Part shown: piece by piece, positions 43,331 to 64,000 of the stretch
Numbering within the stretch: the stretch's first letter is position 1
Layout of the letters: the number at the start of each line of letters is the position of its first letter
NCBI GenBank assembly: GCA_963707025.1
Contig: CAVPOM010000003.1
Span: 224,001 to 288,000, forward strand
Length of the DNA stretch: 64,000 bases
Origin: an uncultured Verrucomicrobiae bacterium
GTDB lineage: Bacteria; Verrucomicrobiota; Verrucomicrobiia; Limisphaerales; Palsa-1400
Reading direction: 5' to 3'
Made by a program: the position numbers and the translations under genes
The notes under the pieces: generated by a model
Database searches by the model: none
What the model saw: the letters and a program-made list of their open reading frames with translations, nothing else
Told to the model about the DNA's origin: nothing

Positions 43331-43340
43331 TTGGAAATTC

Positions 43341-44991: not shown

Positions 44992-45351
44992 ATGAAGATT
45001 AAATTATTCTGTAGTCTGATAGTGACGGTAATCACGGTAGCGGGGCTGGCGGGGTGCGCGACCTCGCACAAGAAGGAGTACCTGGTGCATGAGTTTTGGA
45101 CTTACTCCGACGCCGGGCAGGTCACGCGCCACGAGGTGTGGTCGGAGAACCATCACGGCGGCGGGACGGCGCTGCTGGCGGATCCGGTGGCGACGCAGAT
45201 CGCCAGTTTCCACACCGATCAAGCCGGGCTGGGCGGGGCTTCGGCCTTCACGGTGGGCAACGTGCAGTCCACCGTGAGCAGCAACGCGGCGGCCATTATC
45301 TCGGCGGGCGGGACGGCGGTGGGCAACGTCATCCAGGGAGCGGTGAAGTGA
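44992..45351 (+). CDS. Lipoprotein (possible lysis/spanin-like)
   Basis: MKIK..VAGLAGC lipobox. First gene of the operon. Confidence 0.65.
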   Translation: MKIKLFCSLIVTVITVAGLAGCATSHKKEYLVHEFWTYSDAGQVTRHEVWSENHHGGGTALLADPVATQIASFHTDQAGLGGASAFTVGNVQSTVSSNAAAIISAGGTAVGNVIQGAVK

Positions 45352-45377
45352 GCCTGGGGAAGCGGGAAGCGGAAATT

Positions 45378-46316
45378 ATGCAACCACTGCTGGATGGGGT
45401 TTATGACCGGAGGATGGCGGCGGCGCTGGCCAGGGGGGCGGCGGCGGCTTACGGGGAGGACCGGGAGATGCAGGCCTGGGCGGAGCTGCAGGGGTGCGAC
45501 GGCTGCGCCATCGTCCGCGATGCCGGAACCGATACGCTGGTTTTTGTGGCGGCGGCGGGCCAGCGCGCGTTTGTCGTGTTCCGCGGCACGACCGATTTGC
45601 GCAACTGGCTCACGGATCTGGACGCGAGAATGGTGAATTGGGAATTGGGAATTGAGAATTTCAAAATTCAAAATTCAAAATTCAGAATTCACGAGGGGTT
45701 TTCGCGGGCGCTGAGGACGGTCTGGCCGGAAATTGTTGACACGCTGGGAAAGCTGGCGCCGGGGAGGCGGAACATTTATTTCACGGGGCATTCCCTGGGC
45801 GGGGCCCTGGCCATGCTCGCTTGCGCTCGCTGGCAAGAAATGCAGAGTGCAGAGTGCAGAGTGCAGAATTCTGCAGTCCCCACTCTCCACTCTCCACTTT
45901 CCGTTTGGCTTTACACTTTCGGCCAGCCGCGCGTCGGCAACGCAGCCTGGGCACGCTGGTATGACGCGCGGCTGGGGAGCCGCTCCTTCCGGGTCGTCCA
46001 TGCCGAAGACATCGTGCCGCGCGTGCCCTGGCTGCTCGGCGCTTACCGGCACGCGGGGACTGAGATTTTCTTTGATGCGCTGGGGAAGGCGCATCAGGAC
46101 TGGCCCTGGTGGAAAAAGGCGCCCTCCGACGCGGCCGGGTTGTGGCGGCAATGGCGCCGCGGCAAGCTGGCGCTGCTGGGGGACCATCATGTCAGGACCT
46201 ATGTCGGCATGCTCAATGGGAAATGCGGCATCCGCCAGGCGGAGTGCGGCGGGCAAAAGGCTGAAACTTTTTTGCGGCGGTCCCGGACTGCCGCCACGGA
46301 CCAACATGGAATTTAA
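45378..46316 (+). CDS. Class 3 lipase (alpha/beta hydrolase)
   Basis: VVFRGT, IHEGF, TGHSLGGALA, YTFGQPRVGN, DIVPRVP, YRHAG, DH. Two in-frame heptamer insertions. Confidence 0.9.
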   Translation: MQPLLDGVYDRRMAAALARGAAAAYGEDREMQAWAELQGCDGCAIVRDAGTDTLVFVAAAGQRAFVVFRGTTDLRNWLTDLDARMVNWELGIENFKIQNSKFRIHEGFSRALRTVWPEIVDTLGKLAPGRRNIYFTGHSLGGALAMLACARWQEMQSAECRVQNSAVPTLHSPLSVWLYTFGQPRVGNAAWARWYDARLGSRSFRVVHAEDIVPRVPWLLGAYRHAGTEIFFDALGKAHQDWPWWKKAPSDAAGLWRQWRRGKLALLGDHHVRTYVGMLNGKCGIRQAECGGQKAETFLRRSRTAATDQHGI

Positions 46317-46695
46317 CCCACCAGTGGAAATCGCGGCCTGGCTGGGCTGCCTGGCCTTCGGATTCATGTTGTTCAACGAGGGGTCCAAATTTGTGGACCG
46401 GATCCGGGGCAAAACGCCGCACCCGCCCAATGAGCAACTGGAGTTCAGTGTGGCCGTGATGGACCGGAGGGTGTGCAAGCTGGAGGAGGATGGCGCCAAG
46501 CGCTGGGCCAAAATGGAGGCCGACAAGACGGAGATCCTGCTGGCCGGGGAGTTGCGGGCGGAGAAGCTGCACAACCGGATCAACCCCATCGCGGAGGGAA
46601 TGGAGGGGGTGAAGGCGGCGGTGGAACTGAATAATCAACACACCGTGCTGTTAAGCGCCAAACTGGACCATTTGATGGAGACACAGAACGCATGA
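46306..46695 (+). CDS. N-terminal TM + coiled-coil protein (Mu gp25-like position)
   Basis: IAAWLGCLAFGFMLF TM segment followed by a coiled coil. Synteny with Mu late genes. Confidence 0.55.
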   Translation: MEFNPPVEIAAWLGCLAFGFMLFNEGSKFVDRIRGKTPHPPNEQLEFSVAVMDRRVCKLEEDGAKRWAKMEADKTEILLAGELRAEKLHNRINPIAEGMEGVKAAVELNNQHTVLLSAKLDHLMETQNA

Positions 46696-46822
46696 AAAGA
46701 CTTTTGCCCGCCGATCACGCAGATAAGGCGGATAGGAAACGACAAATTCACTACTATAGATTCCGCTTCCTCATCTGCAACCCTCTGCGTGATCCGCGGG
46801 CAAAAAATGCCGGACAAAAAAT

Positions 46823-47092
46823 ATGAATGCGCAACAACATGAGATTTTTCGCGAGACGATGCTGCGGGCCTTCCAGGCGGCGGCGGGCTGCGGCCTGTGC
46901 CTGGCGACGCTGGATGTGACGCTGCGGACCTGCGGGTTCAAGCGGTTCGAGGAGCAGGACATCGAGGCGGAGGTGCAGTATTTCACCGACAAGGGATTTG
47001 TGGCGGAGGTGCCCAAGTCGCACTCGCTGGGCAACCGGATTTGGCGGATCACGGCGGCGGGCGTGGATGATCTGGAGAGAAGGGGACTGTAG
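46823..47092 (+). CDS. Small winged-helix protein (Mu gp26-like)
   Basis: IEAEVQYFTDKGFV..WRITAAGVD pattern. Two genes upstream of the terminase. Confidence 0.6.
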   Translation: MNAQQHEIFRETMLRAFQAAAGCGLCLATLDVTLRTCGFKRFEEQDIEAEVQYFTDKGFVAEVPKSHSLGNRIWRITAAGVDDLERRGL

Positions 47093-47167
47093 GAAAGGCA
47101 AAATGTCCCGATTGATCGGGACAAAATGCAGAATGAAATTTGAAGTTTGGAAGAGGAGAGGTTGTGA

Positions 47168-47833: not shown

Positions 47834-47923
47834 TTGCATCCCACAAAGCGAGGATGGAGGATGGAGTGAGTCAGGGCTCGAACGGAGTCTCGCCCTACCG
47901 GAGTGGGCGGGGCGAACTGGCGG

Positions 47924-49279
47924 ATGGAAAACTACTTTTTGTCCTATCAGGCGAAGTGGCTGCGGGATGGTTCGCCGAAACGGTTGATGGAGAAATCGCG
48001 GCAGATCGGCATGAGCCTGTGCGCGGCCTATGATTTGGTGAGGAAAACTTCGCTGGCGGGGAACCAATACGATGCCTGGGTTTCGAGCAGCGATGAGTTG
48101 CAGGCGGAGTTGTTCGGGATGGATTGCGGGCGTTGGGCGCGGATTCGACACCGGGCCTGCAAGCAACAGGAACTGAGGCGGCAGGTGCTGGATGCGAAGG
48201 AGAAAATATCGGCGCACGTGCTGACGTTCAAGAACGGCCGGGCGATTTATTCGCTGTCGTCAAATCCCAACGCGCAGGCGGGCAAGCGGGGGCGGCGGGT
48301 GTTTGATGAATTTGCGCTGAACGCGGAGAACCGGCTGCTCTATGCCATCGGCCAGCCGGGGACGATGTGGGGCGGCGGGATGGACATTATCTCGACGCAC
48401 CGGGGGTCGGAGAATTTTTTCAACGAACTGGTCAATGAGGCCAGGCACAAGGGCAATCCCAAGGGCTTTTCTCTCCATCGCGTCACCCTTGAGGACGCCT
48501 GCCAACAGGGGCTGCTGGCCAAGCTGCAAGACAAATGGCGCCAGGCCAACCCGGACGACAGCCGCTTGCAATGGCGGGATGAGGATTTTCTGCAAGCCAT
48601 GCGCAATGAATGCGCCGATGAGGAGGTCTGGTTGCAGGAGTTTATGTGCGTGCCGGGGGACGATCAGGCGGCGTTTCTGTCCTATGACCTGATCGCCGGC
48701 TGCGAGTATCAGCCGGGAGATTGGGAATTGGGAATTGAAAACTTGAAATTGGCAAAAGAACTCTACACGGGCGTGGACGTTGGCCGCGACCACGACCTGA
48801 CCGTCATCTGGGTCGTCGAACGGCTGGAGGATGTTTGTTTCACACGCCGGGTGATCTGTCTGGAGCAAGCCACTTTCGACGCACAGGAGCAGGAGCTTTA
48901 TCAACTGTTGGCCCTGCCAACAGTCAGGAGAGCCTGCATTGACCAGACCGGGATCGGCCGGCAGTTCGCCGAGCGGGCCGCCCAACGCTTCGGGCGCTAC
49001 AAAGTGGAGGGGATTCAGTTTACCAGCGGGGTGCAGGAGGAGCTGGCCTACGACACGCGCCTGGCCTTTGAAAAAAAAACGGTGCGCATCCCGGCGGACA
49101 AATGGATTCGGGCCGATTTGCGCAGCATGCGCAAGGAGGCCACCGCCTCAGGCCATATCCGCTTCACCGGGGAGCGGACGCGCCACGGCCACGCCGACCG
49201 GTTTTGGGGGCTGGCCCTGGCCTTGCACGCGGCCAAAGCAGCGACGGCCGCGAACCGGATTTTTGCGCAATTGATATGA
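47924..49279 (+). CDS. Large terminase subunit, Mu gp28-like
   Basis: FLSYQAKW, EKSRQIGMS Walker A, VFDEFA Walker B, IISTHRG, GVDVGRDHDLTV, CIDQTGIG, GHADRFWGLALA. Confidence 0.92.
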   Translation: MENYFLSYQAKWLRDGSPKRLMEKSRQIGMSLCAAYDLVRKTSLAGNQYDAWVSSSDELQAELFGMDCGRWARIRHRACKQQELRRQVLDAKEKISAHVLTFKNGRAIYSLSSNPNAQAGKRGRRVFDEFALNAENRLLYAIGQPGTMWGGGMDIISTHRGSENFFNELVNEARHKGNPKGFSLHRVTLEDACQQGLLAKLQDKWRQANPDDSRLQWRDEDFLQAMRNECADEEVWLQEFMCVPGDDQAAFLSYDLIAGCEYQPGDWELGIENLKLAKELYTGVDVGRDHDLTVIWVVERLEDVCFTRRVICLEQATFDAQEQELYQLLALPTVRRACIDQTGIGRQFAERAAQRFGRYKVEGIQFTSGVQEELAYDTRLAFEKKTVRIPADKWIRADLRSMRKEATASGHIRFTGERTRHGHADRFWGLALALHAAKAATAANRIFAQLI

Positions 49280-52173
49280 AGACGATGAACTCCACCTTTC
49301 TATCCCGGCTCCATGCCGCCGCCAACTTGATTTTCAAGAGCGGGGCGCCCTTTCCCTTCAATAAGATCATGCCCTACGACGCCATGGGCGGGGAGCGGAT
49401 GTACCGGGCCTTCGAGCAGTCCACCTGGGTGATGAGAGCGATCAAGAAGATCGCCGGACCGATCGCGGCGGTGGATTTGCATTTCACGCGGGCGGGAGAA
49501 CGGTATCACCAGGCCGGGCTGGAGGCTTATTGGGAGATGCCGGGAGCGGGGCTGACGCGGACGGATTTGATCGAGGCGACGGTGGGCTGGCTCAAGCTGG
49601 AAGGGGAGGCCTTTTGGCTGCTGGATGATGCCTGGCTGGCGCCGTTTCCGGGGCAAGGAAATTTAATTGGCGGCGGTCACAGACCGCCGCTCGCGGTGGC
49701 GCGGCCGGACCGCATGCGGCATGTTGTCAAGAATGGAGAGTTGCAGGGATGGGAGTACGTGGACGGGGCGGGCCGGCGGGCGCTGCTCCTGCCCGAACAG
49801 GTCATCCAGTTGAAGCTGTGGAATCCTTACAACGACTGGCGCGGCATGGCGGAGTTGAAGCCGTGCCGGGACGCGGCGGAGGCGGATTACCTGGCGGGGA
49901 AGTTCAATTTAAACCTGATGCGCAACAACGGGGACCAGGGGGTCTATGTCATCGCCAAGGACGGGCTGCCGGTGGACGGGCAGCGCCAACAAATTGTGGA
50001 CCAGATCCGGGAGAAGCGGGAGCTGGCCCAGCGCGGGGTGTTCAAGCCGGTGTTTCTGGACGGAAACGTCACGATCGAGGACCCGAAGATCCGGGTGCCG
50101 GACGGGGATTTCATCGCCTCGCGGCTGCAGAACCGGCATGAGGTGTTTATCGCCATGGGTGTGCCGGCTTCGATGGCGGATGTCAAGGCCAGTTACTCCA
50201 TCGGCTCGGCCTCGGACTGGTTCATGCTCATCGCCGAGACGTGCATCCCGCTGGGGGAGAAAATCTGCCAGGGGATCAACCAGGTGTTGCGGCGCCAGGG
50301 GGCGGCGCAGGTCAGGGCCTCGCTCAATTGGGACGAGCATCCGGTCATCCAGGCCGTGCGCCGGGAACGGGCCGACACGGCGGCCAAGTATTTTGCCATG
50401 GGCGTGCCGCTCCAGGCGCTCAATGATTATCTGGACCTGGAGCTGCCGGCCTGCCCGGGTTGGGAAAAGGCGTATGTGCCGGCCAAGCTGGCGGAGATCA
50501 GCCAGGAGGCGGCGCCGGCGGCCGCCGTGACGGTGGATGACATGGATGACACGGTCGGCCTGATGCGGCAAGCCCTCAGCCCCGCCAACAGGATCAAACG
50601 GGCTTTTAACGCAAAGGCGCACAGGCGCGAAGACGCAAAGACGGAAGAGGACGGGAATGGCGGATTGGGATTAGGATCAAGATTAGGATTAAGATTAGCA
50701 GGCCAAGAGGGAGCAAGTCAGCGCGCGACGCCCTCCTGCGCTGAAGCTTCCTCCTTCACCGGGCCTGCGCAGGACGGGACGGAGGGCAGGGAGTCCCGCC
50801 CTGCCGACGGGGAGACGGCCGGAGTGCGCCCGTCCCCGGGCGCAGCCACTTTCGGACTTGCACCCCGCCCGGCCAATCCCGCAACCGCCGGGTCTTTGCG
50901 GCCGGCTGCGCCCGGGGACGGGCGCACTCCTTTGCTGATGAAGGGGTTCGTCCCGCGCTTTAACCGGGAGTTGATGAAGGCGCGCACGGAAACGCTGCGG
51001 CGGCTGGAGGGGAACGGGACTTTTGTATTTGACACGGCGGGGTTTGCGCGCGGACTGGCCACGGGACTGCGGCCGGTGGCGCAGGCGGCGTTGCAGGACA
51101 TGCAAAATGAGGACGAGCGGATCCTCTGCTTGGACAGGCGGGAAATGGTCTGGCGGGCGGAGGCGGAACGGATTGGACGGGAGATCGAGACGGCGGCGGG
51201 CCAGGCGGAGGGAGGCGGGCAGGCGGACGCGGTGCGGGCCAAGTTTAATGAGATCGCCAAACGCCGCGCCCCGGAGCTGGCGCGGGAGGAAATGGAGGCG
51301 CTCCACTGCGGATTAGGATTAGGATTAGGATTAGGATTAGGATTAAGATTAGGAGGGGAAGAGGGATCGAGTCAGGGCGCGACGGAGTCTCGCCCTACCG
51401 TCGGCGCGGGCGAAGCCGCTGCTGTTATTCCGGCCTGCGGCGGGCAGGGGACTGCCCGCCCTGCCGTGAAAGGAATGGGGGTGGCGCCGCTGCGGCGGCT
51501 GCTCCATCCGGAGGTCAGGGTGGTGGACGCGCGCCGGGGGATCGTGGATTATATCGCGTCGGATGAAAGTATTGACAGTTACAAGGAGGTCATCCGGGCG
51601 GCGGGCTGGCGCTTCACCCATTTTGCCCGGAATGCGCCCTTCGTGGATTCGCACGATTATTCCAGCATCGAGAAATGCCTGGGCAAGGTGATTGATTTCC
51701 GGGTGGACGGCGCGCGGCTGATCGAACGGGTGCAGTGGGCCATAGATGTGCCGGAGAACAAGCTGGCCCAGATCGGCTGGAAGATGACGGAGGCGGGCTA
51801 CCTCAAGGCGGTCAGCCTGGGGTTTTTTCCTGTCAAGTATGTCACGGCGGGCGCGGGGGAGGAATGGACCCGGCAGTTGCGGGAGCTGGGGTTGCCCGCC
51901 GACGCGCCCGTGCGCACCATTTACACCGAGCAGGAACAGGTCGAGCTGTCCTGCTGCGTGGTCGGGTCCAATCCCAACGCCCTGGCCAAGGCCTGGCAGG
52001 CGGGGGCCATCAGCGACGCGGACATCGCAACACTTTCCTTGGAATACTCACCCCGTGAAAACGGCCGCGCGGCCGACTGTCCTGCTCCCGCCGCGCCGGC
52101 CCCGGGGCAGGCACGGGCGAGGTTTTTGGAGGAATTGCACAAAGCAATGAAAACAGAAGAACAGAAATTATGA
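49276..52173 (+). CDS. Portal protein fused through a repeat-filled, MuF-remnant linker to an HK97-type prohead protease (protease from ~51475)
   Basis: WLKLEGEAFW, RPDRM, PEQVIQLKLWNPYNDWRG, VFIAMGVP portal motifs. IASDESIDSYKEVI..DSHD..AVSLGF..ELSCCVVGSNPNAL protease motifs. Confidence 0.85.
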   Translation: MKTMNSTFLSRLHAAANLIFKSGAPFPFNKIMPYDAMGGERMYRAFEQSTWVMRAIKKIAGPIAAVDLHFTRAGERYHQAGLEAYWEMPGAGLTRTDLIEATVGWLKLEGEAFWLLDDAWLAPFPGQGNLIGGGHRPPLAVARPDRMRHVVKNGELQGWEYVDGAGRRALLLPEQVIQLKLWNPYNDWRGMAELKPCRDAAEADYLAGKFNLNLMRNNGDQGVYVIAKDGLPVDGQRQQIVDQIREKRELAQRGVFKPVFLDGNVTIEDPKIRVPDGDFIASRLQNRHEVFIAMGVPASMADVKASYSIGSASDWFMLIAETCIPLGEKICQGINQVLRRQGAAQVRASLNWDEHPVIQAVRRERADTAAKYFAMGVPLQALNDYLDLELPACPGWEKAYVPAKLAEISQEAAPAAAVTVDDMDDTVGLMRQALSPANRIKRAFNAKAHRREDAKTEEDGNGGLGLGSRLGLRLAGQEGASQRATPSCAEASSFTGPAQDGTEGRESRPADGETAGVRPSPGAATFGLAPRPANPATAGSLRPAAPGDGRTPLLMKGFVPRFNRELMKARTETLRRLEGNGTFVFDTAGFARGLATGLRPVAQAALQDMQNEDERILCLDRREMVWRAEAERIGREIETAAGQAEGGGQADAVRAKFNEIAKRRAPELAREEMEALHCGLGLGLGLGLGLRLGGEEGSSQGATESRPTVGAGEAAAVIPACGGQGTARPAVKGMGVAPLRRLLHPEVRVVDARRGIVDYIASDESIDSYKEVIRAAGWRFTHFARNAPFVDSHDYSSIEKCLGKVIDFRVDGARLIERVQWAIDVPENKLAQIGWKMTEAGYLKAVSLGFFPVKYVTAGAGEEWTRQLRELGLPADAPVRTIYTEQEQVELSCCVVGSNPNALAKAWQAGAISDADIATLSLEYSPRENGRAADCPAPAAPAPGQARARFLEELHKAMKTEEQKL

Positions 52174-53433
52174 AGACGTTAAGTGAAGATCAATTCCAGG
52201 AGACAGTCCTGCGGGGAGTCAACGCGGTGGGGGAGAAATTCGAGGCGGTGGAACGCAACCAGGAGACGCTGCTGCGCAATTACGACCAGTTGGGCCGGGA
52301 AACCAAGCAAACCATGGAGGAGCTGACGCGGCTGAAGAACACGGCCAACGACCGCGCCCAGATTCTGAGCGCGGTGCAGAAGCTGCAACTGCAACTGCGG
52401 GCCGAAGCGGTCGCCGCCGGGATGGACCCGATCCAGCGCATCGTCAACGACCCGGAAAAAAGGGCGCGGCTGAACCTGGCGGTGCGCCTGGCGGTGGACC
52501 GGAACGGGGACCTGCGGCCGGCGATTGAACCGCTGGCCCGGGCCATCGGGGAGGACACCGGGGAAGGGGCGACCCTGATCATCGCGCAGTTGTTCAAGGA
52601 AATCTACGACACGCTGGCCCAGTACCGGGGACTGGAGCACGCTGGGGGTCAGGCGGCTGGGAACCAAGGTGACCAACTTCCCGGTCAAGACGGCCCGGGT
52701 GGTGGCGCAATGGCTGACCACCGAGGCGGTGGCCATCCCGGACGACACCAACGAGGCCGGTTCGACCATGACGCTGACCGTGCTGCCCAACGCGGTGCTG
52801 CTCAACGTCAGCCGGCAGTTGATCGAGGACGCGGAGTTCGACGTGACCACGGTGGTGATGGAGGACTTCCAGGAGGCCTGGAACCTGCGGCTGGACACGG
52901 CGGCCTTCACGGGCAACGGCACGGGCGACGGGAACAACGGCGGCTTCACCGGGCTGTTCAACGCCGGCAACAAGGCGGTGGCGGCGCAGGGGAACACGAC
53001 GGTGGCGGCGCTGGATTTCGACGACGTGACCCGCTGCCTGACGTCGGTGGCACCGGTGGTGTTGAAACGCAAGCCGCGCTGGTGGCTGCACCCGCAGATG
53101 CTGGTGCGGTTGATGGGGATCAAGGACAACAACGGCCGGCCGATTTTCCTGGGGGCGCTGGAGGCGCCCAGTTACGGGGCCATCGGCACCATCCTGGGCT
53201 ACCCGGTGACGGCGGTGATGGCGGCGCCCAACACCGACGCGGCCGGCCAACTGGTCGCCGCCTTCGGGGACCGGAACGGCCAGGTGGTGGGGGTGCGGGA
53301 CGACTTCGTGTTTGAATCGTCGGATCATTACCGGTGGAACACGCTGGAGCGGTCCTTCCGGGCCTACGGCCGGGCGGCCACAGGCTGCCGCCAGGCCAAC
53401 GCGTTTGCGATTTTGCAGACGGCGGCAAGGTAA
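52170..53433 (+). CDS. HK97-fold major capsid protein; +1 frameshift at ~52626
   Basis: N-terminal coiled-coil delta domain. VSRQLIEDA, FTGNGT, WWLHP..LMGIKDNNGRPIF, TILGYPV, AFGD. Removing one C restores QYGDWSTLGVRR. Confidence 0.88.
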
Positions 53434-53571: not shown

Positions 53572-54066
53572 ATGAAAAAGATATTGTTGACAATGATGGG
53601 GATGGCGGCGGCGGGCGCGGCCTGGGGGCAGGAGTATGCGAGCCTGCCCATCACCTACACGCCGCCGGGCACGACGAACACGGGGACGGCGCTGACCAAC
53701 GCGGTGCCGGCCAACGCCACCAACGCGGTGCTGAGCGATCCGATTGGACTGACGAGGTACGACAGTTGCGCCATCCAATGGGAGTTCAACGCCCTGAGCA
53801 ACGCCGCGCCGCTGGGCTGCACCAATTATCTGACGTTCGGGGCCTCGTCGGACGGGTTGGTCTTCACCCCGACGAACGCGCCGTTTCTGACGCTGACGGT
53901 GGTGATCCCGCCGACGGCGACCAACGGGGTGCTGGTGACCAATCTGTCCGGCACGCTGCTGGGAAGCATCGGCTACCTGCAGTTGCAGACCATGGCCTGC
54001 CAGGGGACGAACACCACCACCAACCATAGCGTGCTGATTTGGCGCAAGCCAAAGCGGAACGGGTAG
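53572..54066 (+). CDS. Signal-peptide-bearing beta-rich protein in the head-decoration position
   Basis: MKKILLTMMGMAAAGAAWG-Q. T/N-rich. Directly after the capsid gene. Confidence 0.65.
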   Translation: MKKILLTMMGMAAAGAAWGQEYASLPITYTPPGTTNTGTALTNAVPANATNAVLSDPIGLTRYDSCAIQWEFNALSNAAPLGCTNYLTFGASSDGLVFTPTNAPFLTLTVVIPPTATNGVLVTNLSGTLLGSIGYLQLQTMACQGTNTTTNHSVLIWRKPKRNG

Positions 54067-55053: not shown

Positions 55054-55767
55054 ATGGACTTGCTTTTGCAATTGCAGCAGGACGTGTGCGACAAGCTGAA
55101 TTCGGAGGCGGCGTTTGAGTATCTGGCGGTGGCGACACTGCGCGGGCATGTGATCGGGAGCGAGATCGAACGGCGGGTGGCGCATCTGACGGGGAAGAAC
55201 GGGCGGAAGGGTTGCGGGCTGACGGTGAGGATGCCGTCGCTGCGGGGCTTGCAGCCGAATGTGGCGCCGGCGCAGGGGGAGGTGGCGGTGGCGGTGGATG
55301 TGGTGGAGGCGCCGGAGATCAATTTCAACGCGGGGGGAACGCGGGTGACGGCGGAGGAGGCGGCGCGGGCGGCGCGGAGGGCGCTGCACCAGTTTGCCAT
55401 CGAGGGGAAAATTCTTCTTTACCAGGATGAGAAGGCGATCGAACCGCTGGCGGGGCTGGAGAAGGAGTTTCCGGGCTGCCTGGGCTACCGGGTGCGGCTG
55501 CGGGGACGGATGAGCGAGGCGGCGGCGGGGAAATGCGCGCAGCCGGCCATAGCGGCGCCGGGGCAGACGGTGAGTTTTTCGACGACGGACGAGGGGGCGG
55601 GGATTTATTACACGACGGACGGGAGTTTTCCGGGGCCGGGGAATTGCGGGGGAACGGCGCTGGTGTATGCGGGGCCGTTCGAGGTGGATCCGGGAACGGT
55701 GGTGCGGTGGGCGGGTTATGTGGAGGGGTTGATGGGGAGCGACACGGGGGAGGCGACGATTGGTTAA
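55054..55767 (+). CDS. Putative tail-completion protein with a C-terminal chitobiase/FN3-associated domain
   Basis: Position in the operon. C-terminal VSFSTTDEGAGIYYTTDGSFP..YAGPF motif. Confidence 0.55.
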   Translation: MDLLLQLQQDVCDKLNSEAAFEYLAVATLRGHVIGSEIERRVAHLTGKNGRKGCGLTVRMPSLRGLQPNVAPAQGEVAVAVDVVEAPEINFNAGGTRVTAEEAARAARRALHQFAIEGKILLYQDEKAIEPLAGLEKEFPGCLGYRVRLRGRMSEAAAGKCAQPAIAAPGQTVSFSTTDEGAGIYYTTDGSFPGPGNCGGTALVYAGPFEVDPGTVVRWAGYVEGLMGSDTGEATIG

Positions 55768-55862
55768 ACGCAGCATGGGGAATGCCGCGTGGATAATGCG
55801 AAAGGCAAAAAGCAGGAAGAAAGACTTGGAGCGGGAGCACGGAGTCAAACACACAATAAATT

Positions 55863-56784
55863 ATGAGCATATCGAGATCATTGCTGGCGGGCGGGCCGGC
55901 TTATGTAAATTTTAACGGGGCGAACATACCGCTGGGGGAGGATTCGCGGCTGGAGATCGCGCCGGTCAACCGGGTGATCAGCGCGGCACTCTACGGGGAG
56001 ATTGACGAGGTCTATGCGGACCTGGTGGTCAAGGGGACGGGGACGCCGCTGACCTACGATAATCTGGCAACGCTGTGGCCGTATTTGCAGCCGACGATCG
56101 GGGGGAGGATTTTCGGGAATGCGGACGCGGCGTTGCAATGGCTGTCGAACAACGGGGACGTGATCACGGTGAGGGCGGGGGCGGTGACGAGGATGCCGGA
56201 ATTAATCCTGGGGGTGGAGAAGGCGGGGATCGGGCCGATGGAGTTTGGCGGGGTGGTCGGCAATGGATTGGATCCGAGCGCGAGCAATTCGTATTACACG
56301 ATAGCCACGGGGCAGACGTTCAGCCCGCCGGCGATTGCGGCCGCGAAAATACCGCGGCAGAAATACACGGCGGGATGGGGAAGCGTGGCGGGGTTCACCA
56401 GTTTCCAGGCGCAGGAGGAGTGGACGATCACGCACGAGTTGAAGCTGGCGCCGGTGAGGATTCAAGGGCGGACGGTGGACATGAAGATCACGAGCTACCG
56501 GGCGATGGCGAAATGCATGCCCGGCGGAGCCGACGATGGCGGAAGTGGACGCGGCGCTGCTGGCGCAGGGAGGGGCGGCGGAGCACGGGGCCAAGCTGAG
56601 TGCGAAGGCGGCGGACCTGGTGATCACGGGAGCGCAGACGGTGAGTGTGACTGTCAAGAATGCGGCGCTGAAGACGGCGGGATTTGTGTTTGCGGGCAAG
56701 GCGCTGCGGAACGGGGAGATCGGGTTTGTGTCAACCATAAATGTGAGCAGCGGGACGGCCACGGCGGCGCTGGTGCTGGGATGA
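55863..56784 (+). CDS. Putative major tail (tube) protein; frameshift at ~56523
   Basis: GGPAYVNFNG start, beta-rich two-lobed sequence. ORFs 55863-56810 and 56536-56784 join as KCMPAEPTMAEVD. Confidence 0.55.
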
Positions 56785-56840
56785 GGAAATCAAGATCCGG
56801 ATCAGGATAAAGCAGGAGGAAGCAGAGGCGGGACCGAGGC

Positions 56841-57251
56841 ATGAAGATAACGATCACAGCGGGGGGAGCACCGGCGTTTGTGCTGGCGGACGACGCGGGC
56901 GGGGCGACGGTGCAGGATGGGTTTTGTCCGAAACAGACGCGGATTTTACAGAGCCAGGGGATGTTCCGGGCGGCCTACAAGGCGAACCTGCCGCGCTACA
57001 ACCTGGAGAACCGGCTGAGGTTTGTGGTGGAGCGGACCTTTGGGACGGTGGAGGCGGCGCTGAGCTTCATCGCCGGCCACGCCGACCAGACGCCGGCGCA
57101 GGGGACGCTGACGGTTTATAATCTGAGCGCCCGGGGACAGAGCCGGCGCAGCCTGGCCAACGCGGTGGTGGCGGAGGTGGAGTGCGTGGAACATGTGGGA
57201 GTGAGCTGCAAGTTTCAATACACCATCGCGGGAAACGGAGCCTGGCAATGA
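56841..57251 (+). CDS. Hypothetical tail-module protein
   Basis: 136-aa ORF with an RBS (GAGG) in the tail region. Confidence 0.6.
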   Translation: MKITITAGGAPAFVLADDAGGATVQDGFCPKQTRILQSQGMFRAAYKANLPRYNLENRLRFVVERTFGTVEAALSFIAGHADQTPAQGTLTVYNLSARGQSRRSLANAVVAEVECVEHVGVSCKFQYTIAGNGAWQ

Positions 57252-57351
57252 ACAGGAAAAGCAATGCAACAGCAGCACCCCCAGGGGAGACAGGGGAGGT
57301 TCGACCCCGCCCCGCCCCTCTCCTGCAGGAGAGGGAACTGAAAATAAAAGT

Positions 57352-57987
57352 ATGAGCGCGATTGGAGTTTTACCGATTCGACTTTTTTGCGATCTGGCGG
57401 CGCGGAATGAGCCGTTGCTGGACGTTAATACCGGGCAGGCGGCGGTTTTCTATCGCGGGGACGACGTGGAGATAGACATCGGGATTGGGGAGGATGGGGC
57501 GCTGCTGGCGCCGGTCTTGTCCAACATAACCTCGGTGACGTGCCAGATTTTCGCCAAACAAAACGATGTCAACGCGCCGATGATGTCCTGCACGGTGGCC
57601 GCGGCCGGCATGAATTTGACGCTGACGGCGGCGCAGTGGGCGGGGAACACGGCGCCCTTTTATCACGCGGCGTTCGTGTTTCCGAATGGGCAGACGCAGA
57701 TCCCGCTCAACGGGGCGGCGTCGCAGAATTACTGGCTGCGCATCACGCTGACGACGGCGGACGCGGCCGCCAAGGTGATCACGCTGCTGGACGGGCCGGT
57801 CACGGTGCTGGACGGGCCGGTGAGCGGGGCCAGTCCGGGGGTGGGGAATGTGCGGTTTACGACGGACGCTTCCGGGAACTGGGTCTTGCAGCTCCGCAAC
57901 GACTCGGACGGGAAGTTTTACACGGTGGGGATTGAGAACGGGGCGGGAGGGATGCCGGGGCTTTACCTCGGAGACACGGGAAGCTGA
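57352..57987 (+). CDS. Putative baseplate/fibre-attachment protein (BppU-like N-terminus)
   Basis: FYRGDDVEIDIGI motif and beta-sandwich pattern before the fibre genes. Confidence 0.5.
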   Translation: MSAIGVLPIRLFCDLAARNEPLLDVNTGQAAVFYRGDDVEIDIGIGEDGALLAPVLSNITSVTCQIFAKQNDVNAPMMSCTVAAAGMNLTLTAAQWAGNTAPFYHAAFVFPNGQTQIPLNGAASQNYWLRITLTTADAAAKVITLLDGPVTVLDGPVSGASPGVGNVRFTTDASGNWVLQLRNDSDGKFYTVGIENGAGGMPGLYLGDTGS

Positions 57988-58016
57988 CTGAAATTTTGAA
58001 TTTTGAATTTTGAATT

Positions 58017-60498
58017 ATGAAAACGGAAAAGAATTTAGGATGGATCGGGCTGCTGTCTTTTTTCACTATTCTCTATTCTCAATTCACCATTCCGCTCCGC
58101 GCGCAGACGCGGAGTGCGGTCATGGTGAGCAACGCCACGGGGCAACTGGCCGGGCCGACAAACTTTTTTGCCGCGAACTCCAATTTGCTGAATCAGGCGG
58201 TCAATACGTCCGGTTTTGGGGGCGGCGGCGGCGGCGCGCCGGGCTTTGACCCCTGCTGGTTTTTCACCAACGCGGCGGGCAAGATTGACCTGGCGCTTTC
58301 GATCAGCAATTTCCTGAACGCCGCCCAAACCGGGTCGGTGAACCTGACCAACTGGTCGGCGCTGTCCACCAACATTTTGACGGCGATGGGTGCGGCCTGG
58401 ACCAATGCCATTGCGGGCGGGACCAACGCGCTCAACGCCGGGCAGTATCTTATCGCCAACGGCGGGACGGGCAACGCCAACACCTTCACCGGCGCGCCGC
58501 TGTTCCAGGGCGCGGGCGGGACGGGACCGGGCTTGGCGGCCACGTTCTACAGCAGCGGGACGGTGACCAGCGCCACCATCAGCAACCACACCGGCACCGG
58601 CACCATGCTCAATTTCGACAACGATCCAACCTCCGCCGGGGAGATCCCGTTCAATTTCGGGGGGGCGCAATACTGGATTGTCTGGGCGACGAGCAACCTC
58701 TGGCAAATCAAGGATCTCAACGGGCAGGCCGTGGCCACGTTCAGCAACCTCAATGACAGCCTGCTCCTCGGCGGAAACCTTTACAGCCCGAGCAACGCGT
58801 CCTTCGGCGGCAACTTGGCCATGAACGGTTCGGCCAGTTTTCTGGGCGCACTGACGGAAAGCAACCGCTATTCCTACCACACCAACGCCACATTTGTGGA
58901 ACCGGAAATCCTGCTCGGCGGCACGGGAACCTTTGCGGAAGTCTTCGAGTTTGGCGGACTGTTTGCCTGGCTGCGCCAGGTGCAGAGCAATACCTGGAGC
59001 GTGACCGATTTGAATAACCAGCATGTCATTGACTTCACCAACCTGACCGACAGCATCGGCCTGCACGGCAATGTCAACGTGGACAGCAATCTCACCGTGG
59101 CCGGCGCGGTTTCGATCACCGGCAACCTCTCAGCGGCCAACTTTGGCACGGCCGGCCAATCCAACGGCCTGCAATTCCTGGGAGGCTCTGGGCGGCCAGG
59201 GAAGCAATGACGTGCTCTACGCGCCCATCACCACCAATCTCCATGAGCGTGCGAATCTGACGGTGGATGGCCTCGCCTCTCTCGGCAACGGCAATTTCAA
59301 GGTGAACACCGCCGGCAATTCCACCAATGCGGGGAGCATGGCCATCCAGGGCAGTTTGACGGCGAGCGGTAGCGTGAACATCATCACCCATGCGATGAAC
59401 GGAACGGAAAAAGTGGACATTAACCTGGCCAACCTTTCGGACACAGACGCCCTGGCCGTCATGTCCGGCAACAACAGTTATAACTTCAATTATCCATCCG
59501 CCGTCGGCCCGGAATTTCAGGTCGGTCCGGGCGGCGGAATCAATGAGGCGTTTGTCTATTACAACGTCACCAACGCCGATGGCAATCTCGCTTTGGCGGA
59601 CAACATCTTCTCTGCGCCCACCTGGAATACGGTCATCCAGACTGGCGGGGCCAACACCACGCTGACCTTGCCGACCTCGACCAATTGGAGCACCTCCATT
59701 TATTCCGGCAACGCCGGTTCGCACGCCGTCAGTCTCTTCGGCTCCAACACCTGCGTTTTCGACGTTTTAAACGACGGCGGCGGCATCGAAACCGTGGTGA
59801 CGGCCGACCACGCCTTTTTTCACATCCTGACCAATGGCGGCTACATCGCCATCACCAACCCCTCCATCTCGGCCGGCCAATATATGAGGCTCTGCTACGG
59901 CGGCTCCAACGGCATCGCCATCCTCAACCTTGCCAACAGCTACCCGACGACCAGCGCCAGCCAACTGACCAGCGGCACGGTGCCGGACGCGGTGATGAGA
60001 AGTTCTGGGAGTTATGGGGATAATGAGTCGAACTATGTCCGCAGCGTCACCCTGCCAGGCGGCGATTTCATGCCCGCGACCAATGGCAATCTGGTCACTG
60101 CGACCAATCTGGCGGGCAGCGGGTTCGGCGCGCTCACCAATGGGCCGGTTTCCTTTGCCACCAATTTTACGGCCATCTTTGGCTCGAACATCTTCCAGAC
60201 CATCGTGCTGCCCAACAAGGACTTTTACCTGAGCGCGGTCAGCTTTGTCGGGGCGTCGCAGTATCCGCAGCCGCTCAATCTCATCCTGACAAACAATGGC
60301 AGCGCCACCACCGTTCACCTGTGGATTCCGACCAATCTTATGGCCTTCAACACCAATTGGACGGTGCTGGGGACCAATTACGAAATCCCCCTGACTAACA
60401 CCACCTTTGGCCGGGTGGCGCACCTGAGCATGCTGGCCCTGGCCCCCGACCCGACCATGCACGCCATCGAGTGGAACCTGGGAGTGACCCTGCCATGA
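58017..60498 (+). CDS. Tail-fibre-like G/N/T-rich protein with an N-terminal signal peptide; frameshift at ~59185
   Basis: ..LLSFFTILYSQFTIPLRA-Q. Internal repeat W.(I/V).DLN.Q.V..F(S/T)NL.DS. SASQLTSGTVPDA fibre-type motif. Confidence 0.65.
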
Positions 60499-60542
60499 CG
60501 GGGAAATGAAAAATGAAAAATGAAAAATGAAAAATTGAAGCC

Positions 60543-61373
60543 ATGAAAAAGATCAGACAGATGGGATCCCGATTCCGAATCGGGAGACCGATAGGCCTGA
60601 CATTCTGCATTTCTGCCCTTGCCCAGGGCAGCCTTTCCCCCGCCGGGATGGTTCCCTATCTGCTGCCCATGCCCACCAATGCAGTGGCTTCCAGCGGCGG
60701 CTACACCAACGTGGCCAACGGCCTGCTGGCCTGGTGGAAGCTCAACGACGGCACCGGGGCCAGCGCGGCGGATTCATCCGGCAACGGCAACACGGCGGCG
60801 CTGGTCGGCACGCCAACGTGGGGAACGGGCGATCTCACCCTCAACGGCACCAGCCAATACGTCAACACAACGGACGGCAACTCGATCAAGGGTTTGGCGG
60901 CCTATAGCTTGTGCTTTTGGATTGACGGCCCGTTGAACAATGCCAATGGGTCGGACCTATGGTGTGAGCACAACAATTCGGGAAGCGAGACGCGCTTTGA
61001 AATCTATGTCAATTACCCGGCCCCGTTCACGCTTTGGGTGGATGGCAGTTCAACGGATGCAGCGAGCACGGCCTGGATTACCGCGACCACCAGCGCCATC
61101 CCGGCGAACACCTGGACGCATGTGGCCGTGACAGTTGACTTGACGGCGGGCAAGGTGCTGGTCTATTTCAACGGCTCGCAAGACGCGACGACCGGAACTG
61201 TGAGCGGCACAACGTTTGTCGGGACCAACCCGCAAGTAGTCCCATGCCTGGGCAATGATCCCGACGGCGGCGGTTATTATTTGCCGGCCACGCTCTGCCA
61301 GGCGCGGGTCTATAATCGCGCCCTGACCGCGACGGAGATAAACGACCTTTTCCACTATGACGCGCATCCTTAA
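60543..61373 (+). CDS. LamG/concanavalin-domain protein with a signal-like N-terminus
   Basis: GLLAWWKLNDGTGASAADSSGNGN, NTWTHVAVT, RVYNRALTATEI. Confidence 0.85.
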   Translation: MKKIRQMGSRFRIGRPIGLTFCISALAQGSLSPAGMVPYLLPMPTNAVASSGGYTNVANGLLAWWKLNDGTGASAADSSGNGNTAALVGTPTWGTGDLTLNGTSQYVNTTDGNSIKGLAAYSLCFWIDGPLNNANGSDLWCEHNNSGSETRFEIYVNYPAPFTLWVDGSSTDAASTAWITATTSAIPANTWTHVAVTVDLTAGKVLVYFNGSQDATTGTVSGTTFVGTNPQVVPCLGNDPDGGGYYLPATLCQARVYNRALTATEINDLFHYDAHP

Positions 61374-62751
61374 GATCGGCTTGACATTCTGCATTCTGCA
61401 TTTTGCATTCTGCATTAGGGCGGCGGGGACTGGCCCGGCCTATCCACTGAAATACAACGCCGGCCAGCATTACCTGGTGGACCAGAACAACGTCCCGTTT
61501 TTCATCATGGGCGACAGCCCCTGGTATCTGACCGAATCGCTCTACCAACCGGACATCCTCTATTATTTGACCAATCGCGCGGCGCAAGGCTTCAACTCGA
61601 TCATCCTGGACATCACCGCCGTCACCGAGGAAAGCGCGCAGTCTTTCCCCAGCCGGACAGGCAACATCTACGGGCAGGACCCGTTCACCGGCGTCATCGC
61701 CGGGCCTTACACCAACCTGGCCGCGATCAACGCCAATTATTTCACCAACGTGGACTGGGTTTTGAAGGCGGCGGCGTCCAATGGCATTTGCTGCTTCATC
61801 TATCCCATGTTTGACGGCGTGCAGGACGGCGGCGAGTGGGGCTGGTATCAGGACGCCGCGCAGAACAGCAGCAACGCCATCTACGGCTACGGCCAGTTCA
61901 TCGGCAACAGGTATGCCGCGCAGCCCAACATCGTTTGGATCGGGGCGGGGGATTTCGACGAGCCGCAGCCCCCCGATCCGGTTTGGACCATCATCGCCAA
62001 CGGCATCTTGTCCAAGGACAGCAGCCATCTCATGACCGCGCAGGCCGCGCCGTTTGAAGCGGCCAAACTCCACTACACAAACACCTGGTGCAACCTCAAT
62101 GACACTTATCCAAGGTCGCCTGGCCCGCAAAACACCACCTACGATTTTGAGAAAACCAACTGGTTCTATTCACCGGTCATGCCCAGCTTCTCGCGTGAGC
62201 CGTGGTATGAGAACGACCAGTGGGGGACCATCGGCACGAACTACTTTGACTGCCGGCGTTATGCCTGGGGATCGGCGACCTTCGGGGCCTGCGGCGTGTT
62301 TTACGGGAACCAAAACATTTGGGCCTTCAACGGCTCGGCTTCCAGCCAGGATTGGAAAAGCGCCATGCAATCCCCGGCGGCCGTGACCAACGTGATCAAG
62401 CTGCTGAACACGCGGCCGTGGTGGAACTTCGTACCCGACTACAACAACGCGGCGGTGAGCGCGGGTTATGGGACTTATGGCCAGGAGGCTTACGTGACGG
62501 CCATGCGCGAGGCCAGCGGGCAGGGGATCATTGCTTATGTTCCGTTTGGCACCATGACACCGACGGTGGCCATGAATCAATTGGCTGGATGGTCGGCGAC
62601 GGCCTGGTGGTATAATCCCCGGACCGGCGCGGGCACGGCCATCGGCGCCTATGCCACGAGCGGGACGCAGACTTTCACGCCGCCAGACACCAATGACTGG
62701 GTGCTGGTGATAGACTCGGTGCTGGCGCGGAGCGCGGGGGTTCACCCATGA
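61357..62751 (+). CDS. DUF4038/GH140-like glycoside hydrolase with a C-terminal collagen-binding-like domain; signal peptide
   Basis: YLVDQNNVPFFIMGDSPW, RAAQGFN, GNRYAAQPNIVWIGAGD, EPWYE, AWWYNPRTG, FTPP..DWVLVI. Confidence 0.8.
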   Translation: MTRILKIGLTFCILHFAFCIRAAGTGPAYPLKYNAGQHYLVDQNNVPFFIMGDSPWYLTESLYQPDILYYLTNRAAQGFNSIILDITAVTEESAQSFPSRTGNIYGQDPFTGVIAGPYTNLAAINANYFTNVDWVLKAAASNGICCFIYPMFDGVQDGGEWGWYQDAAQNSSNAIYGYGQFIGNRYAAQPNIVWIGAGDFDEPQPPDPVWTIIANGILSKDSSHLMTAQAAPFEAAKLHYTNTWCNLNDTYPRSPGPQNTTYDFEKTNWFYSPVMPSFSREPWYENDQWGTIGTNYFDCRRYAWGSATFGACGVFYGNQNIWAFNGSASSQDWKSAMQSPAAVTNVIKLLNTRPWWNFVPDYNNAAVSAGYGTYGQEAYVTAMREASGQGIIAYVPFGTMTPTVAMNQLAGWSATAWWYNPRTGAGTAIGAYATSGTQTFTPPDTNDWVLVIDSVLARSAGVHP

Positions 62752-62906
62752 GAAAAATCGGATTGACAAGATGGATGGGACTGATGGGATTGATGGGAGC
62801 GATGGGAGCCATGGGAGCAATGGGAGCGATGGGAGTGATGATGGCCGGCGGGGCGGGCCGGCGCCGCAATAACAGGCCAGGTGGAGATGGAGGAGAATAT
62901 GTCTGA
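62748..62906 (+). pseudogene. Orphan signal-peptide ORF (52 aa) built from a 9-nt repeat
   Basis: MRKIGLTRW(MGL)2(MGA)4MGVMMAGGAG... The ATG overlaps the upstream stop. No mature domain follows. Confidence 0.45.
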
Positions 62907-63693
62907 AGAAGGCCCGGAGTTTGAAGTTCGTGTGGAGACGGCGCTGGAACTGGCCGGGGCGGAGGAGGGGGCGGCGGAGCTGGAGAGGGCCATCGGGAAG
63001 GCCAAGGCGGTGGGCCGGAATTTTGGCCGGTTGGCAAAGCAACTGGCCAGGGCCAGGGAAGGGGTGAGGCGGTTTCGCCTGGCACACCCAGGCGGAGGCG
63101 CCGGGGCGGTGGAGACAAGGCAGAATGCATCGTCCTGCGCAGAGGCTTCCACCTTGGCCGGGCCTACGGTGGACAGGACGGAGGACAGGACGGCGGAGGA
63201 GAAAGGGCAAGGGCAGCATGAAAAGCAGGGGAGGGATTACGAATTGGAAGAGGGAACGAGTCACGGCTCGACGGAGTCTCGCCCTACCGGGGCGGAAGGA
63301 GGGCAGGAGGGCAAAGGGACTGAGGCAAGACAAAATGCATCCTCTCCCGCCGGGCCTTCCACCTGCGCCGGGGCTTCGGAGGACAGGACGGCGGACGAGA
63401 ACGGCCAAGGGCAGAATGAAAACGAGGAGAGGGATTACGGATTGGAAGAGGGAACGAGTCACGGCTCGACCGAGCCCCGCCCGGCCGGAGCGGGAGGCGG
63501 CGATGGTGGAGACGGGAGGATGGCAGAGGCGGGCCGGCGGGAGGTGGAGGCGATGGTGCGGCAGGCGATGGAGGAGCGGGAAAGGACGCGGCCACAAAGG
63601 GAAAACCGGCCGGAGGAGGAGGCGCGGGTGGCGGCGCTGGAGTCGCGGCTGCGGTGGCTGGAGGAACGGACGAGGATTGGCCGGGATTTCTGA
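62881..63693 (+). CDS. Collapsed tape-measure-like protein whose middle consists of two ~190-bp REP-derived repeats
   Basis: Helical A/E/R-rich ends. Imperfect repeats at ~63112-63300 and ~63322-63497. Confidence 0.45.
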   Translation: MEMEENMSEEGPEFEVRVETALELAGAEEGAAELERAIGKAKAVGRNFGRLAKQLARAREGVRRFRLAHPGGGAGAVETRQNASSCAEASTLAGPTVDRTEDRTAEEKGQGQHEKQGRDYELEEGTSHGSTESRPTGAEGGQEGKGTEARQNASSPAGPSTCAGASEDRTADENGQGQNENEERDYGLEEGTSHGSTEPRPAGAGGGDGGDGRMAEAGRREVEAMVRQAMEERERTRPQRENRPEEEARVAALESRLRWLEERTRIGRDF

Positions 63694-63846
63694 AATGAAA
63701 AATGCAGCATGAAAAATGAAAAGACTTATACGACGCTGACTTTTGCAGGGGTGGAACAGTGCCTGGGCGACCCTCCTGAGCTAAAGCTTCCTCCTTCGCC
63801 GGGCCTACGGAGGACGGGACGGAGGGCAGATTGGGGGATCTGAGCC

Positions 63847-64000
63847 GTGACCTATACCACACTGACATACAATGGGACGGAGAAGTCGCTGGCTGATTGG
63901 GGGATCGGCAAGTGGCGGCGCGAGGCCTTTAACCAGGCGAGCGATTCGTTCGCATTCGATCTGCTGGCCGCGACGGACGCGGCGGAGATTCTCCCCTATG
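63847..64000 (+). CDS. Tail protein, 5' part (runs off window)
   Basis: GTG start, VTYTTLTYNGTEKSLADWGIGKWRREAFNQASDSF. A truncated paralogous start lies at 63709-63843. Confidence 0.55.
   Translation, partial: MTYTTLTYNGTEKSLADWGIGKWRREAFNQASDSFAFDLLAATDAAEILPY

Follow-up and report, generated by a model that had tools for sequence, protein, structure and literature searches.

There is a cluster of phage late genes towards the end of a 64,000-nucleotide stretch of DNA from an uncultured Verrucomicrobiae bacterium (contig CAVPOM010000003.1 of assembly GCA_963707025.1). We refer to this whole stretch as the window and give coordinates as window positions (G000:C3:224001-288000, where G000 is the genome that carries it). 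Positions above 64000 extend into the next 20 kb (L009), and other designations of the form Gxxx and Lxxx denote related genomes and fetched loci, respectively. The cluster runs from 44733 to approximately 69140, a co-oriented arrangement of about 24 kb whose final 5 kb lie beyond the window end, and all of its likely genes (44992-68723) are on the plus strand. Genes were chosen by third-position GC content, and every open reading frame (ORF) from the RND efflux operon on the left to the UbiX/UbiA genes on the right was scanned for Pfam and PHROG families. The order begins with a lipoprotein, a class-3 lipase, a transmembrane (TM) protein, an 89 amino acid (aa) protein, a small terminase (TerS) candidate, the large terminase (TerL), a fused portal, MuF remnant and protease, and an HK97 capsid, and it continues with an adaptor, the tail tube, fibres, a hub and a distal tail gene before UbiX and UbiA are reached (Table 1). 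An initial annotation of this DNA had described an operon of this content, from lipoprotein and lipase through terminase and head genes to tail genes, and both family matches and predicted folds bear it out.

The left boundary of the cluster is sharp, with a sequence at 44733 that begins ATTTAGTTGATAATCAAC and is common to all nine aligned loci, upstream of which the sequences are unrelated. The right boundary at approximately 69140 was set by the differing gene found directly upstream of UbiX in G002 and G004, and no inverted repeat between the two ends was seen by eye in the alignments. The RND operon (OEP, AcrB, MFP) occupies the minus strand at 38538-44408, or extends to ~44562 when it is read on past a frameshift in line with the G003 ortholog. 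Its distance from the lipoprotein ATG at 44992, first given as 470 bp, is accordingly 430-580 bp, and the spacer holds no gene, as had been claimed. Downstream of the hub there are the 497-aa distal tail gene (split by a copy of the insertion sequence IS630), a small ORF, UbiX and UbiA. The early or replication genes and element ends that might have lain just past 64 kb are not there. Across the whole scanned interval no transposase, MuB, Gam, repressor or integrase was recognized by Pfam or PHROG on either flank. The locus is thus a head, tail and packaging cluster that lacks its own replication, integration or lysogeny genes, and both MuA and MuB, which characterize a Mu-like transposable phage, are absent from the element and its flanks.

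Relatives of the TerL protein are present in 23 of 41 related genomes, including G000. One is a prophage on G015:C4, from another genus of the same family, in which the late genes and their order agree with the G000 cluster (protein identity 30-57%) and whose portal is fused to MuF (PF04233). There the late genes are preceded by a 671-aa transposase-like protein (phrog_310, E 2e-6), MuB (phrog_296, E 3e-29) and Gam (PF07352, E 7e-13). This early region measures 8 kb and its counterpart is missing from the G000 cluster. Since these early genes precede the shared late region in G015, the G000 cluster can be identified as the late half of a Mu-like phage that remains after loss of the early region. 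The left boundary shared by nine loci indicates that the early-less form arose once, as does the derived condition in which portal, MuF and protease form a single ORF.

One possibility is that the cluster is still a complete, autonomous phage whose replication and lysogeny depend on small genes that escape recognition or on genes elsewhere in the genome. Several genes indeed have no family match, and the 89-aa protein could be a regulator. However, the unassigned genes all fall within the lysis, head and tail order shared with the G015 prophage, that complete relative depends on 8 kb of early genes which have no counterpart in the cluster, and host genes abut both ends. We therefore regard this explanation as very improbable.

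In G000, no homologues of the G015 early genes were found except for a weak match within a Tn7-like region. A Mu-like helper phage in G000 was considered and rejected, since the weak MuA-like match on contig C12 sits in this Tn7-like region with an AAA_22 ATPase. The region (C12:202307-209149; L085) has Tn7-like or Tn5053-like genes of 337, 907, 524 (AAA_22) and 432 aa, the first of which weakly matches the N-terminus of the G015 transposase-like protein. Separately, the complete 6-Mb genome of another family member (G009:C1) has approximately eight TerL-like matches, some of them split and one with an internal TAG, and a single cell thus carries many phage-derived loci with this type of terminase.

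Genes of the cluster and their leader

Judging from its position, the lipoprotein gene is the first of a probable lysis cassette. The lipase that follows is also adjacent to TerL in G015 and G013, and the TM protein with its coiled coil may be holin- or spanin-like. The 89-aa protein had been labelled a winged helix-turn-helix protein. A small conserved gene is indeed located here and is present in 11/11 complete metagenome instances, but no family match supports such a label. The cluster closest to the TerS candidate in the Atlas (score 0.93) has PF11985 (Mu gp27) in 17% of its members, which makes a Mu gp27-like TerS only a lead, and G003 has an unrelated allele at this position. TerL is the sole terminase of its type found in G000.

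The MuF remnant in G000 and G003 consists of 120 aligning aa that have repeat insertions on both sides and continue in frame into the protease. Portal, MuF and protease are one ORF in G003 and in 12/14 close relatives, and they are separate genes in G015, L079 and L081. No Pfam protease family scored, and the protease assignment derives from conservation and from PHROG matches in which the C-terminal 220 aa of the ORF align with the protease-bearing N-terminal parts of head families. The capsid is intact in G003 (426-aa frame). These genes together provide an HK97-type head module (capsid with delta domain, prohead protease and portal) and a Mu-type late module in which the TerL and portal families are matched, TerS is a lead and MuF (PF04233) is seen in G015. 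A tailocin was rejected as an explanation because capsid, portal and terminase genes are present.

The tail genes are not recognized by Pfam or PHROG, and hence the tube and hub were identified by fold. A tube model built from 40 homologues (predicted local distance difference test score, pLDDT, 83.6) was matched by Foldseek to the T5 tail tip and tube (pb6/p140) and to the P74-26 tube, with E values from 1e-8 to 1e-5. The protein encoded at 55863 is thus predicted to be a double-domain siphophage tail tube, and a sequence search of the PDB with the tube profile gave no match. The hub was modelled in its 797-aa G003 form (pLDDT 78.6), and its fold resembles gp27, VgrG, the spikes of contractile injection systems, Mu gp44 and the Tal/tail-tip hubs of siphophages. 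A Pfam search with 22 distant hub relatives gave no match. The short helical protein encoded just upstream of the hub is a candidate tape measure, possibly a very short one, and the encoded tail is probably short and non-contractile.

Only the first 165 aa of the fibre-like proteins match G003, and this region is variable in all relatives. The LamG/hydrolase pair is a variable cargo or receptor module that is absent in G003, and its hydrolase is present in G005. The apiosidase-like hydrolase (61357-62751) has a 61%-identical chromosomal paralogue at C18:416086-417381 of G000, and a repeat (61385-61416) supplies the coding sequence of its hydrophobic N-terminal stretch. Outside the cluster, an IS3-family transposase gene is located 3 kb past UbiA (L009 7726-8742), after a low-GC stretch at 70739-71629.

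Table 1. Features of the late-gene cluster in window coordinates, with the matches and conservation recorded for each
Feature	Position	Strand	Evidence and remarks
Conserved non-coding leader	44733..44991	+	260 bp to lipoprotein ATG, common to nine aligned loci; 44808-44987 is a dispersed host repeat
Lipoprotein, 119 aa, lipobox LAGC	44992..45351	+	92% identical in G003; homologue in same place in G015 prophage
Class-3 lipase	45375..46316	+	PF01764 E 5e-31; phrog_21992 esterase/lipase
Protein with one TM helix and coiled coil	46318..46695	+	84% identical in G003, dN/dS 0.19; no family match
89-aa protein	46823..47092	+	88% identical in G003; weak phrog_436, E 0.0065
Small terminase candidate (Mu gp27-like), 221 aa	47168..47833	+	Directly upstream of TerL
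Large terminase TerL (Terminase_6N/6C)	47903..49279	+	PF17289 E 2e-16; PF03237 E 1e-8; phrog_5909 E 4e-36
Portal, MuF remnant and HK97-type prohead protease, single 1023-aa ORF	49276..52173	+	PF04860 E 1e-27; PHROG head/protease matches at residues 805-971
HK97-fold major capsid with coiled-coil delta domain	52170..53433	+	PF05065 E 1.7e-28; frame broken by extra C at 52625/6
164-aa conserved protein 3' of capsid	53572..54066	+	87% identical in G003; 11/11 instances intact; no family match
Head-tail adaptor candidate	54297..54941	+	Weak phrog_442, E 7e-4; 79% identical in G003
Virion protein with C-terminal Ig-like (CHB_HEX_C/Fn3_assoc) domain	55054..55767	+	PF13290 E 1e-9; same architecture in G015
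Predicted major tail tube, 306 aa, double tube domain	55863..56784	+	Fold; frame broken by extra C near 56520
136-aa tail protein	56841..57251	+	79% identical in G003; 9/9 instances intact
211-aa protein	57352..57987	+	G015 counterpart is N-terminal part of a single ~1300-aa fibre/spike protein
Two N/G/T-rich fibre-like proteins	58017..60498	+	Conserved N-terminus, rest variable; no family matches
LamG lectin-like protein and apiosidase-like glycoside hydrolase	60543..62751	+	PF13385 E 3e-23; PF13204 E 7e-54
Short helical protein just upstream of hub	62881..63693	+	In-frame repeats 63114-63417; 42% identical in G003; absent in G015
Tail hub gene	63844..66222 (in window to 64000)	+	TAA at 64387-64389; single 811-aa ORF in G003

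The leader upstream of the lipoprotein gene includes a 180-bp repeat that has five further full copies in G000 (C5:296363-296542, C4:726144-726323, C14:22379-22561, C2:75461-75641 and C17:33926-34105). These copies are 81-84% alike and end a few bases before start codons. The genes downstream of them are a type II/IV secretion (T2SS/T4P) ATPase operon and genes for a radical SAM protein, a GH127 protein, an M28 peptidase and lepA. Perhaps this dispersed element is a portable promoter or leader, which in all relatives is fixed upstream of the phage-derived operon. A promoter scan of the leader gave one weak sigma-70-like site, a search of Rfam gave no match, and the motif of the leader could be found neither in G015 nor in any further phage locus that was fetched.

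Repeats are also frequent in the cluster itself, where 16 segments have from 3 to 125 other copies in the genome. The initial annotation held that such insertions preserve the reading frames, and this proves correct for all nine repeats that lie inside ORFs, of which five are in the portal-protease ORF (50660-50938 and 51307-51466), three are in the ORF at 62881-63693 and one is at the 5' end of the hydrolase gene. It also held that the repeat families are shared with five named host sites, and matches are located near three of these (28532, 29341 and 40036) but not near 13957 or 32030 at the sensitivity used. The linkers between portal, MuF and protease hold different repeat-derived insertions in each lineage (L064-L078), giving ORFs of 922-1103 aa, and the frame is open in 12/14 relatives despite these varying linkers. 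The linker repeats thus appear to behave as translatable spacers.

Relatives and selection

The late-only form is present at the same UbiX junction in three of six congeneric species (G000, G003 and G005). In G003, a congeneric metagenome-assembled genome (MAG), the cluster lies between the same RND operon and UbiX/UbiA. Its products are identical to those of G000 at 94-96% (capsid), 90% (portal), 89% (protease), 90% (tube) and 84% (hub) of positions, compared with 77-92% for adjacent host genes. In G005, the hydrolase, hub and distal genes are found against the same UbiX/UbiA junction. A portal search retrieved 22 metagenome loci and a hub search six IMG/VR contigs, nearly all of which are from the same clade, with capsid identities of 87-94%; three of the metagenome loci, L079, L080 and L081, are either fragments or more distant. 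Each IMG/VR contig stops with the last tail gene. No homologues of MuA, MuB or Gam were found in G003, the 22 metagenome loci or the six IMG/VR contigs, and wherever at least 2 kb of upstream sequence is available (G000, G003/L084 and L071-L074) there are ordinary host genes and no early genes.

The genes of the element evolve under purifying selection. By a Nei-Gojobori estimate of synonymous (dS) and nonsynonymous (dN) divergence between G000 and G003, the dS values of the element are mostly 0.23-0.45, and the host flanks have dS values of 0.12-0.42 with dN/dS of 0.11-0.24. A dN/dS near 1 had been named as a result that would speak against a domesticated particle, and the values obtained for the element are 0.06-0.44. 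By gene, they are 0.06-0.10 for the capsid, 0.13 for the portal, 0.14 for TerL, 0.19 for the protease, 0.24 for the tube and 0.39 for the adaptor. Median values for 14 genes, each compared with five to eight metagenome relatives, are 0.09-0.36.

Most copies of these genes are also intact. Among 19 close metagenome loci, 164 of the 189 complete gene instances are a single open match, and with the frame-corrected protease 13/15 instances are open as well, for a total of ~94%. Most of the remaining flags appear to arise from lipase alignments that run past a shorter C-terminus.

Domestication, decay or mobility

We consider it somewhat probable, at roughly 55%, that the cluster represents the late half of a Mu-like siphophage which has lost its early region and has since been maintained, as an operon for building particles, by a clade of Verrucomicrobiota from peat and soil. 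Two groups of observations weigh against this reading, of which the first concerns lesions. In G000, an extra C at 52625/6 breaks the frame of the capsid gene and another near 56520 breaks that of the tube gene. The hub has TAA at 64387-64389 where G003 and G005 have a Tyr codon, and a 1.0-kb copy of IS630 (66782-67794; L009 2844-3774), whose family has about 19 copies in G000, splits the 497-aa distal tail gene. The structural genes of G000 are therefore not fully intact, whereas a gene transfer agent (GTA) would be expected to have all of them intact in its carrier, and the G000 copy is probably tail-impaired by the IS630 insertion and the hub nonsense codon. The only lesion in G003 is in the tube gene, where codon 14 is TAG, and a metagenome protein (P0001) that is 99% identical to the G003 tube is annotated as full length. 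Furthermore, no long tape-measure gene is present in G000, G003 or the complete G015 prophage, and the tail of the encoded particle may be very short. Related clusters in two other genera are truncated further, with no terminase or protease in G013:C24 and a cut inside the portal in G016:C184, and plain decay therefore also occurs in this family.

The weight of the two frameshifts depends on the quality of the assembly. Both had been suspected in the initial annotation and both are present in the assembly, as one extra C each. To judge the background of such indels, 235 genes were called in G003, of which 178 have a G000 ortholog at 70% identity or more. Twenty of the 178 orthologs match in more than one piece, and these comprise three element genes, two same-frame splits and 15 host genes that are split between frames. 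The host splits (for example at C11:52189, C18:2256, C6:256270 and C17:32755) represent ~24 single-base insertion or deletion events in ~200 kb of otherwise conserved sequence, with four splits in some of the genes. Such a pattern suggests either consensus indel errors or an unusually large number of pseudogenes. With about one host gene in twelve split by single-base indels, reading frames in this assembly cannot be trusted at face value. Because the host indel rate equals that of the element, the two frameshifts are not evidence of decay specific to the element, and they may be assembly errors. Relatives that are ~90% alike, from peat (metagenome run X2), lack the extra base at 56520. Another run (X1) has short pieces identical to the window, and none among the matches listed spans the frameshift sites.

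These lesions raise the question of whether the cluster is simply a cryptic prophage remnant that has no present function and is in the course of being deleted, in which case the signal of constraint would be left over from a past as a live phage. The four lesions in G000, the one in G003 and the further-truncated clusters of G013 and G016 would all fit such a history, and a report on another verrucomicrobial MAG reads a similar cluster of 'Mu-like proteins plus terminase' as a degraded prophage (PMC6920513). However, G000 and G003 share the boundary, which places the origin of the early-less form before their split, and since that split dS has reached ~0.35 with dN/dS at 0.06-0.44. In addition, ~94% of the gene instances in relatives are open, the repeat insertions within ORFs have all kept the frame, and the two frameshifts match an assembly background in which 15/~175 host orthologs are split. 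On balance we find an ordinary remnant unlikely, and the data exclude one that is recent and drifting neutrally.

The second group of observations against a particle operon kept by its hosts concerns inheritance. Conserved synteny, which the initial annotation had named as a check, holds for the right junction, which is the same in three congeners, but not for the left flanks, which differ, and presence is patchy (3/6). The capsid was not found in four of five other congeners, and these four are 64-89% complete and include G005, in which the tail end of the cluster is present. The three others of the four, G001, G002 and G004 (78-89% complete), gave no capsid match, and no element was found beside their RND/UbiX genes. 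Left flanks vary by lineage among RND, GH92, AbiEi, aldo-keto reductase and DUF362 genes. GH92 is found in L063 and L084 (with RND also visible in L084), AbiEi in L071 and DUF362 in L073 and L074. An aldo-keto reductase gene takes this place in L072, and its ortholog in G000, with 87% identity, is located on contig C1.

Modules within the cluster have been exchanged as well. The TerS of G003 is unrelated to that of G000, and its TerL is 74% identical, with a dS of 1.14. L063 and L084 have a GH92 flank that is 100% identical to that of G003, yet they carry a G000-type TerS. The fibre region differs in every lineage, and the hub and distal tail genes of G005 have dS values of 0.9-1.5 versus 0.35 for the flanks. 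Inheritance thus appears not to be purely vertical, and the mosaicism of TerS/TerL, of the fibres and of the distal tail genes suggests movement of the elements' DNA from one lineage to another.

In G003, L063 and L084, the GH92 gene itself (G003:C3:9788-12028) separates the RND operon from the element. Its 77%-identical G000 ortholog is located on C12, and the left flank has therefore been rearranged between two close species.

A different account of this mobility is that the element is a helper-dependent 'mini-Mu' or satellite that builds its own capsid, having kept the phage ends and late genes, and that its transposition, replication and spread all require transposase provided in trans by a complete Mu-like phage. 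This would explain a sharp common left boundary beside unrelated flanks, with at least four different left contexts among close relatives, and swapping of modules such as TerS/TerL and fibres is characteristic of elements that touch the phage pool. Complete Mu-like phages of this family do exist, and TerL relatives are multi-copy in G009. Against these points, no complete Mu-like phage was found in G000, the ends have no inverted-repeat relation by eye, and three species share one right junction, with dS at the level of host genes. Moreover, known satellites carry integrase or replication genes and the element has none. We consider a helper-dependent satellite doubtful.

The proposal that the cluster encodes a long-resident, domesticated particle is thus upheld in part. 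The right junction, host-like dS, low dN/dS and in-frame repeats speak for it, and non-vertical inheritance, exchanged modules and the G000 lesions speak against it. What fits best is a defective Mu-like prophage lineage that has long been retained under purifying selection for its particles and that is a credible GTA-like candidate. The particles may benefit the host, in a GTA-like or PBSX-like way, or they may serve to spread the element, by self-transduction or through mobilisation by a helper.

If the retained operon does build particles, it would be switched on from the conserved 260-bp leader, which is partly a dispersed host intergenic repeat. Proheads would mature through the HK97 protease, and TerS and TerL would fill heads by the headful with unreplicated chromosomal DNA. 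Packaging might start near the element, in which case the element and downstream host DNA would be loaded, or the starting point might be random. Cells would then be opened by the cassette of lipase, lipoprotein and TM protein, and the particles would deliver DNA to relatives, where recombination would follow. Such a mechanism would make the element GTA-like or PBSX-like. Two points would favour host control, namely that there is no recognizable phage regulator and that the leader repeat is shared with host genes. Two others, the differing left flanks and the swapped modules, would favour continued mobility of the DNA.

A more specific and tentative proposal is that this is a further, independently evolved GTA, with no earlier example in Verrucomicrobiota or from a transposable Mu-like phage, which would be driven by a captured host promoter repeat and would package from a site near the left boundary. 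Perhaps, being unable to replicate or excise, the element would load itself and the adjoining chromosome and so act as a built-in device for lateral transduction. Such a device would explain why the genes are so strongly constrained and also why lineages have exchanged parts in a mosaic fashion.

Comparison with known systems

GTAs, in which phages have been tamed into DNA-shuttling particles, have been described in only a few lineages. The element described here is a well-delimited candidate for such a case, with a complete Mu-like ancestor for comparison, dozens of natural variants and a clear signal of selection, and its carriers are abundant and poorly studied bacteria of peat and soil. 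If particles are made, the DNA inside them would distinguish a GTA from a self-transducing defective phage and from a satellite.

GTA particles carry random host DNA, in amounts too small for transfer of the whole cluster, and their production is regulated by the host. Like the GTA of Rhodobacter capsulatus (RcGTA), the element combines head, tail and terminase genes in one cluster, has a portal, protease and capsid of the HK97 type and lacks replication or integration genes. It also shares with GTAs a common locus in related species, purifying selection and what is probably a short, non-contractile tail. Unlike GTAs, it derives from a Mu-like transposable phage and has lysis genes inside the cluster. 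Its left flanks vary, its TerS/TerL and fibres are exchanged horizontally, and its distribution is patchy (three of six congeners). It further differs in belonging to another phylum. One account names five kinds of GTA, none of them in Verrucomicrobiota (PMC6172770), and a review treats GTAs as domesticated defective phages (PMC8987985). For GTAs in Verrucomicrobia, no GTA term appears in the titles among the literature matches listed.

The element resembles PBSX of Bacillus subtilis and other grounded prophages in being a defective prophage that is kept in place, with structural and lysis genes under constraint, and in that packaging of host DNA is possible in principle. PBSX still has a repressor and a late sigma regulator of its own, whereas the element has no recognized phage regulator and its leader contains a dispersed host repeat. 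A survey by Bobay and colleagues reportedly found domesticated defective prophages under purifying selection.

The capsid-forming phage satellites (cf-PICI) likewise encode an HK97 capsid, portal, protease and terminase of their own. They also have integrase and replication genes and no tails, whereas the element has lysis genes and a tail with predicted tube and hub folds, and neither integrase nor replication genes.

B3, D3112 and RcapMu are Mu-like siphophages. The element differs from these phages and from the G015 prophage in that MuA, MuB, Gam and a repressor are absent, the MuF remnant is fused to the HK97 protease and an extra short helical protein precedes the hub. It shares with them the order of lysis genes, gp27-like TerS, Terminase_6 TerL and portal fused to MuF, as well as a hub with a fold like that of Mu gp44.

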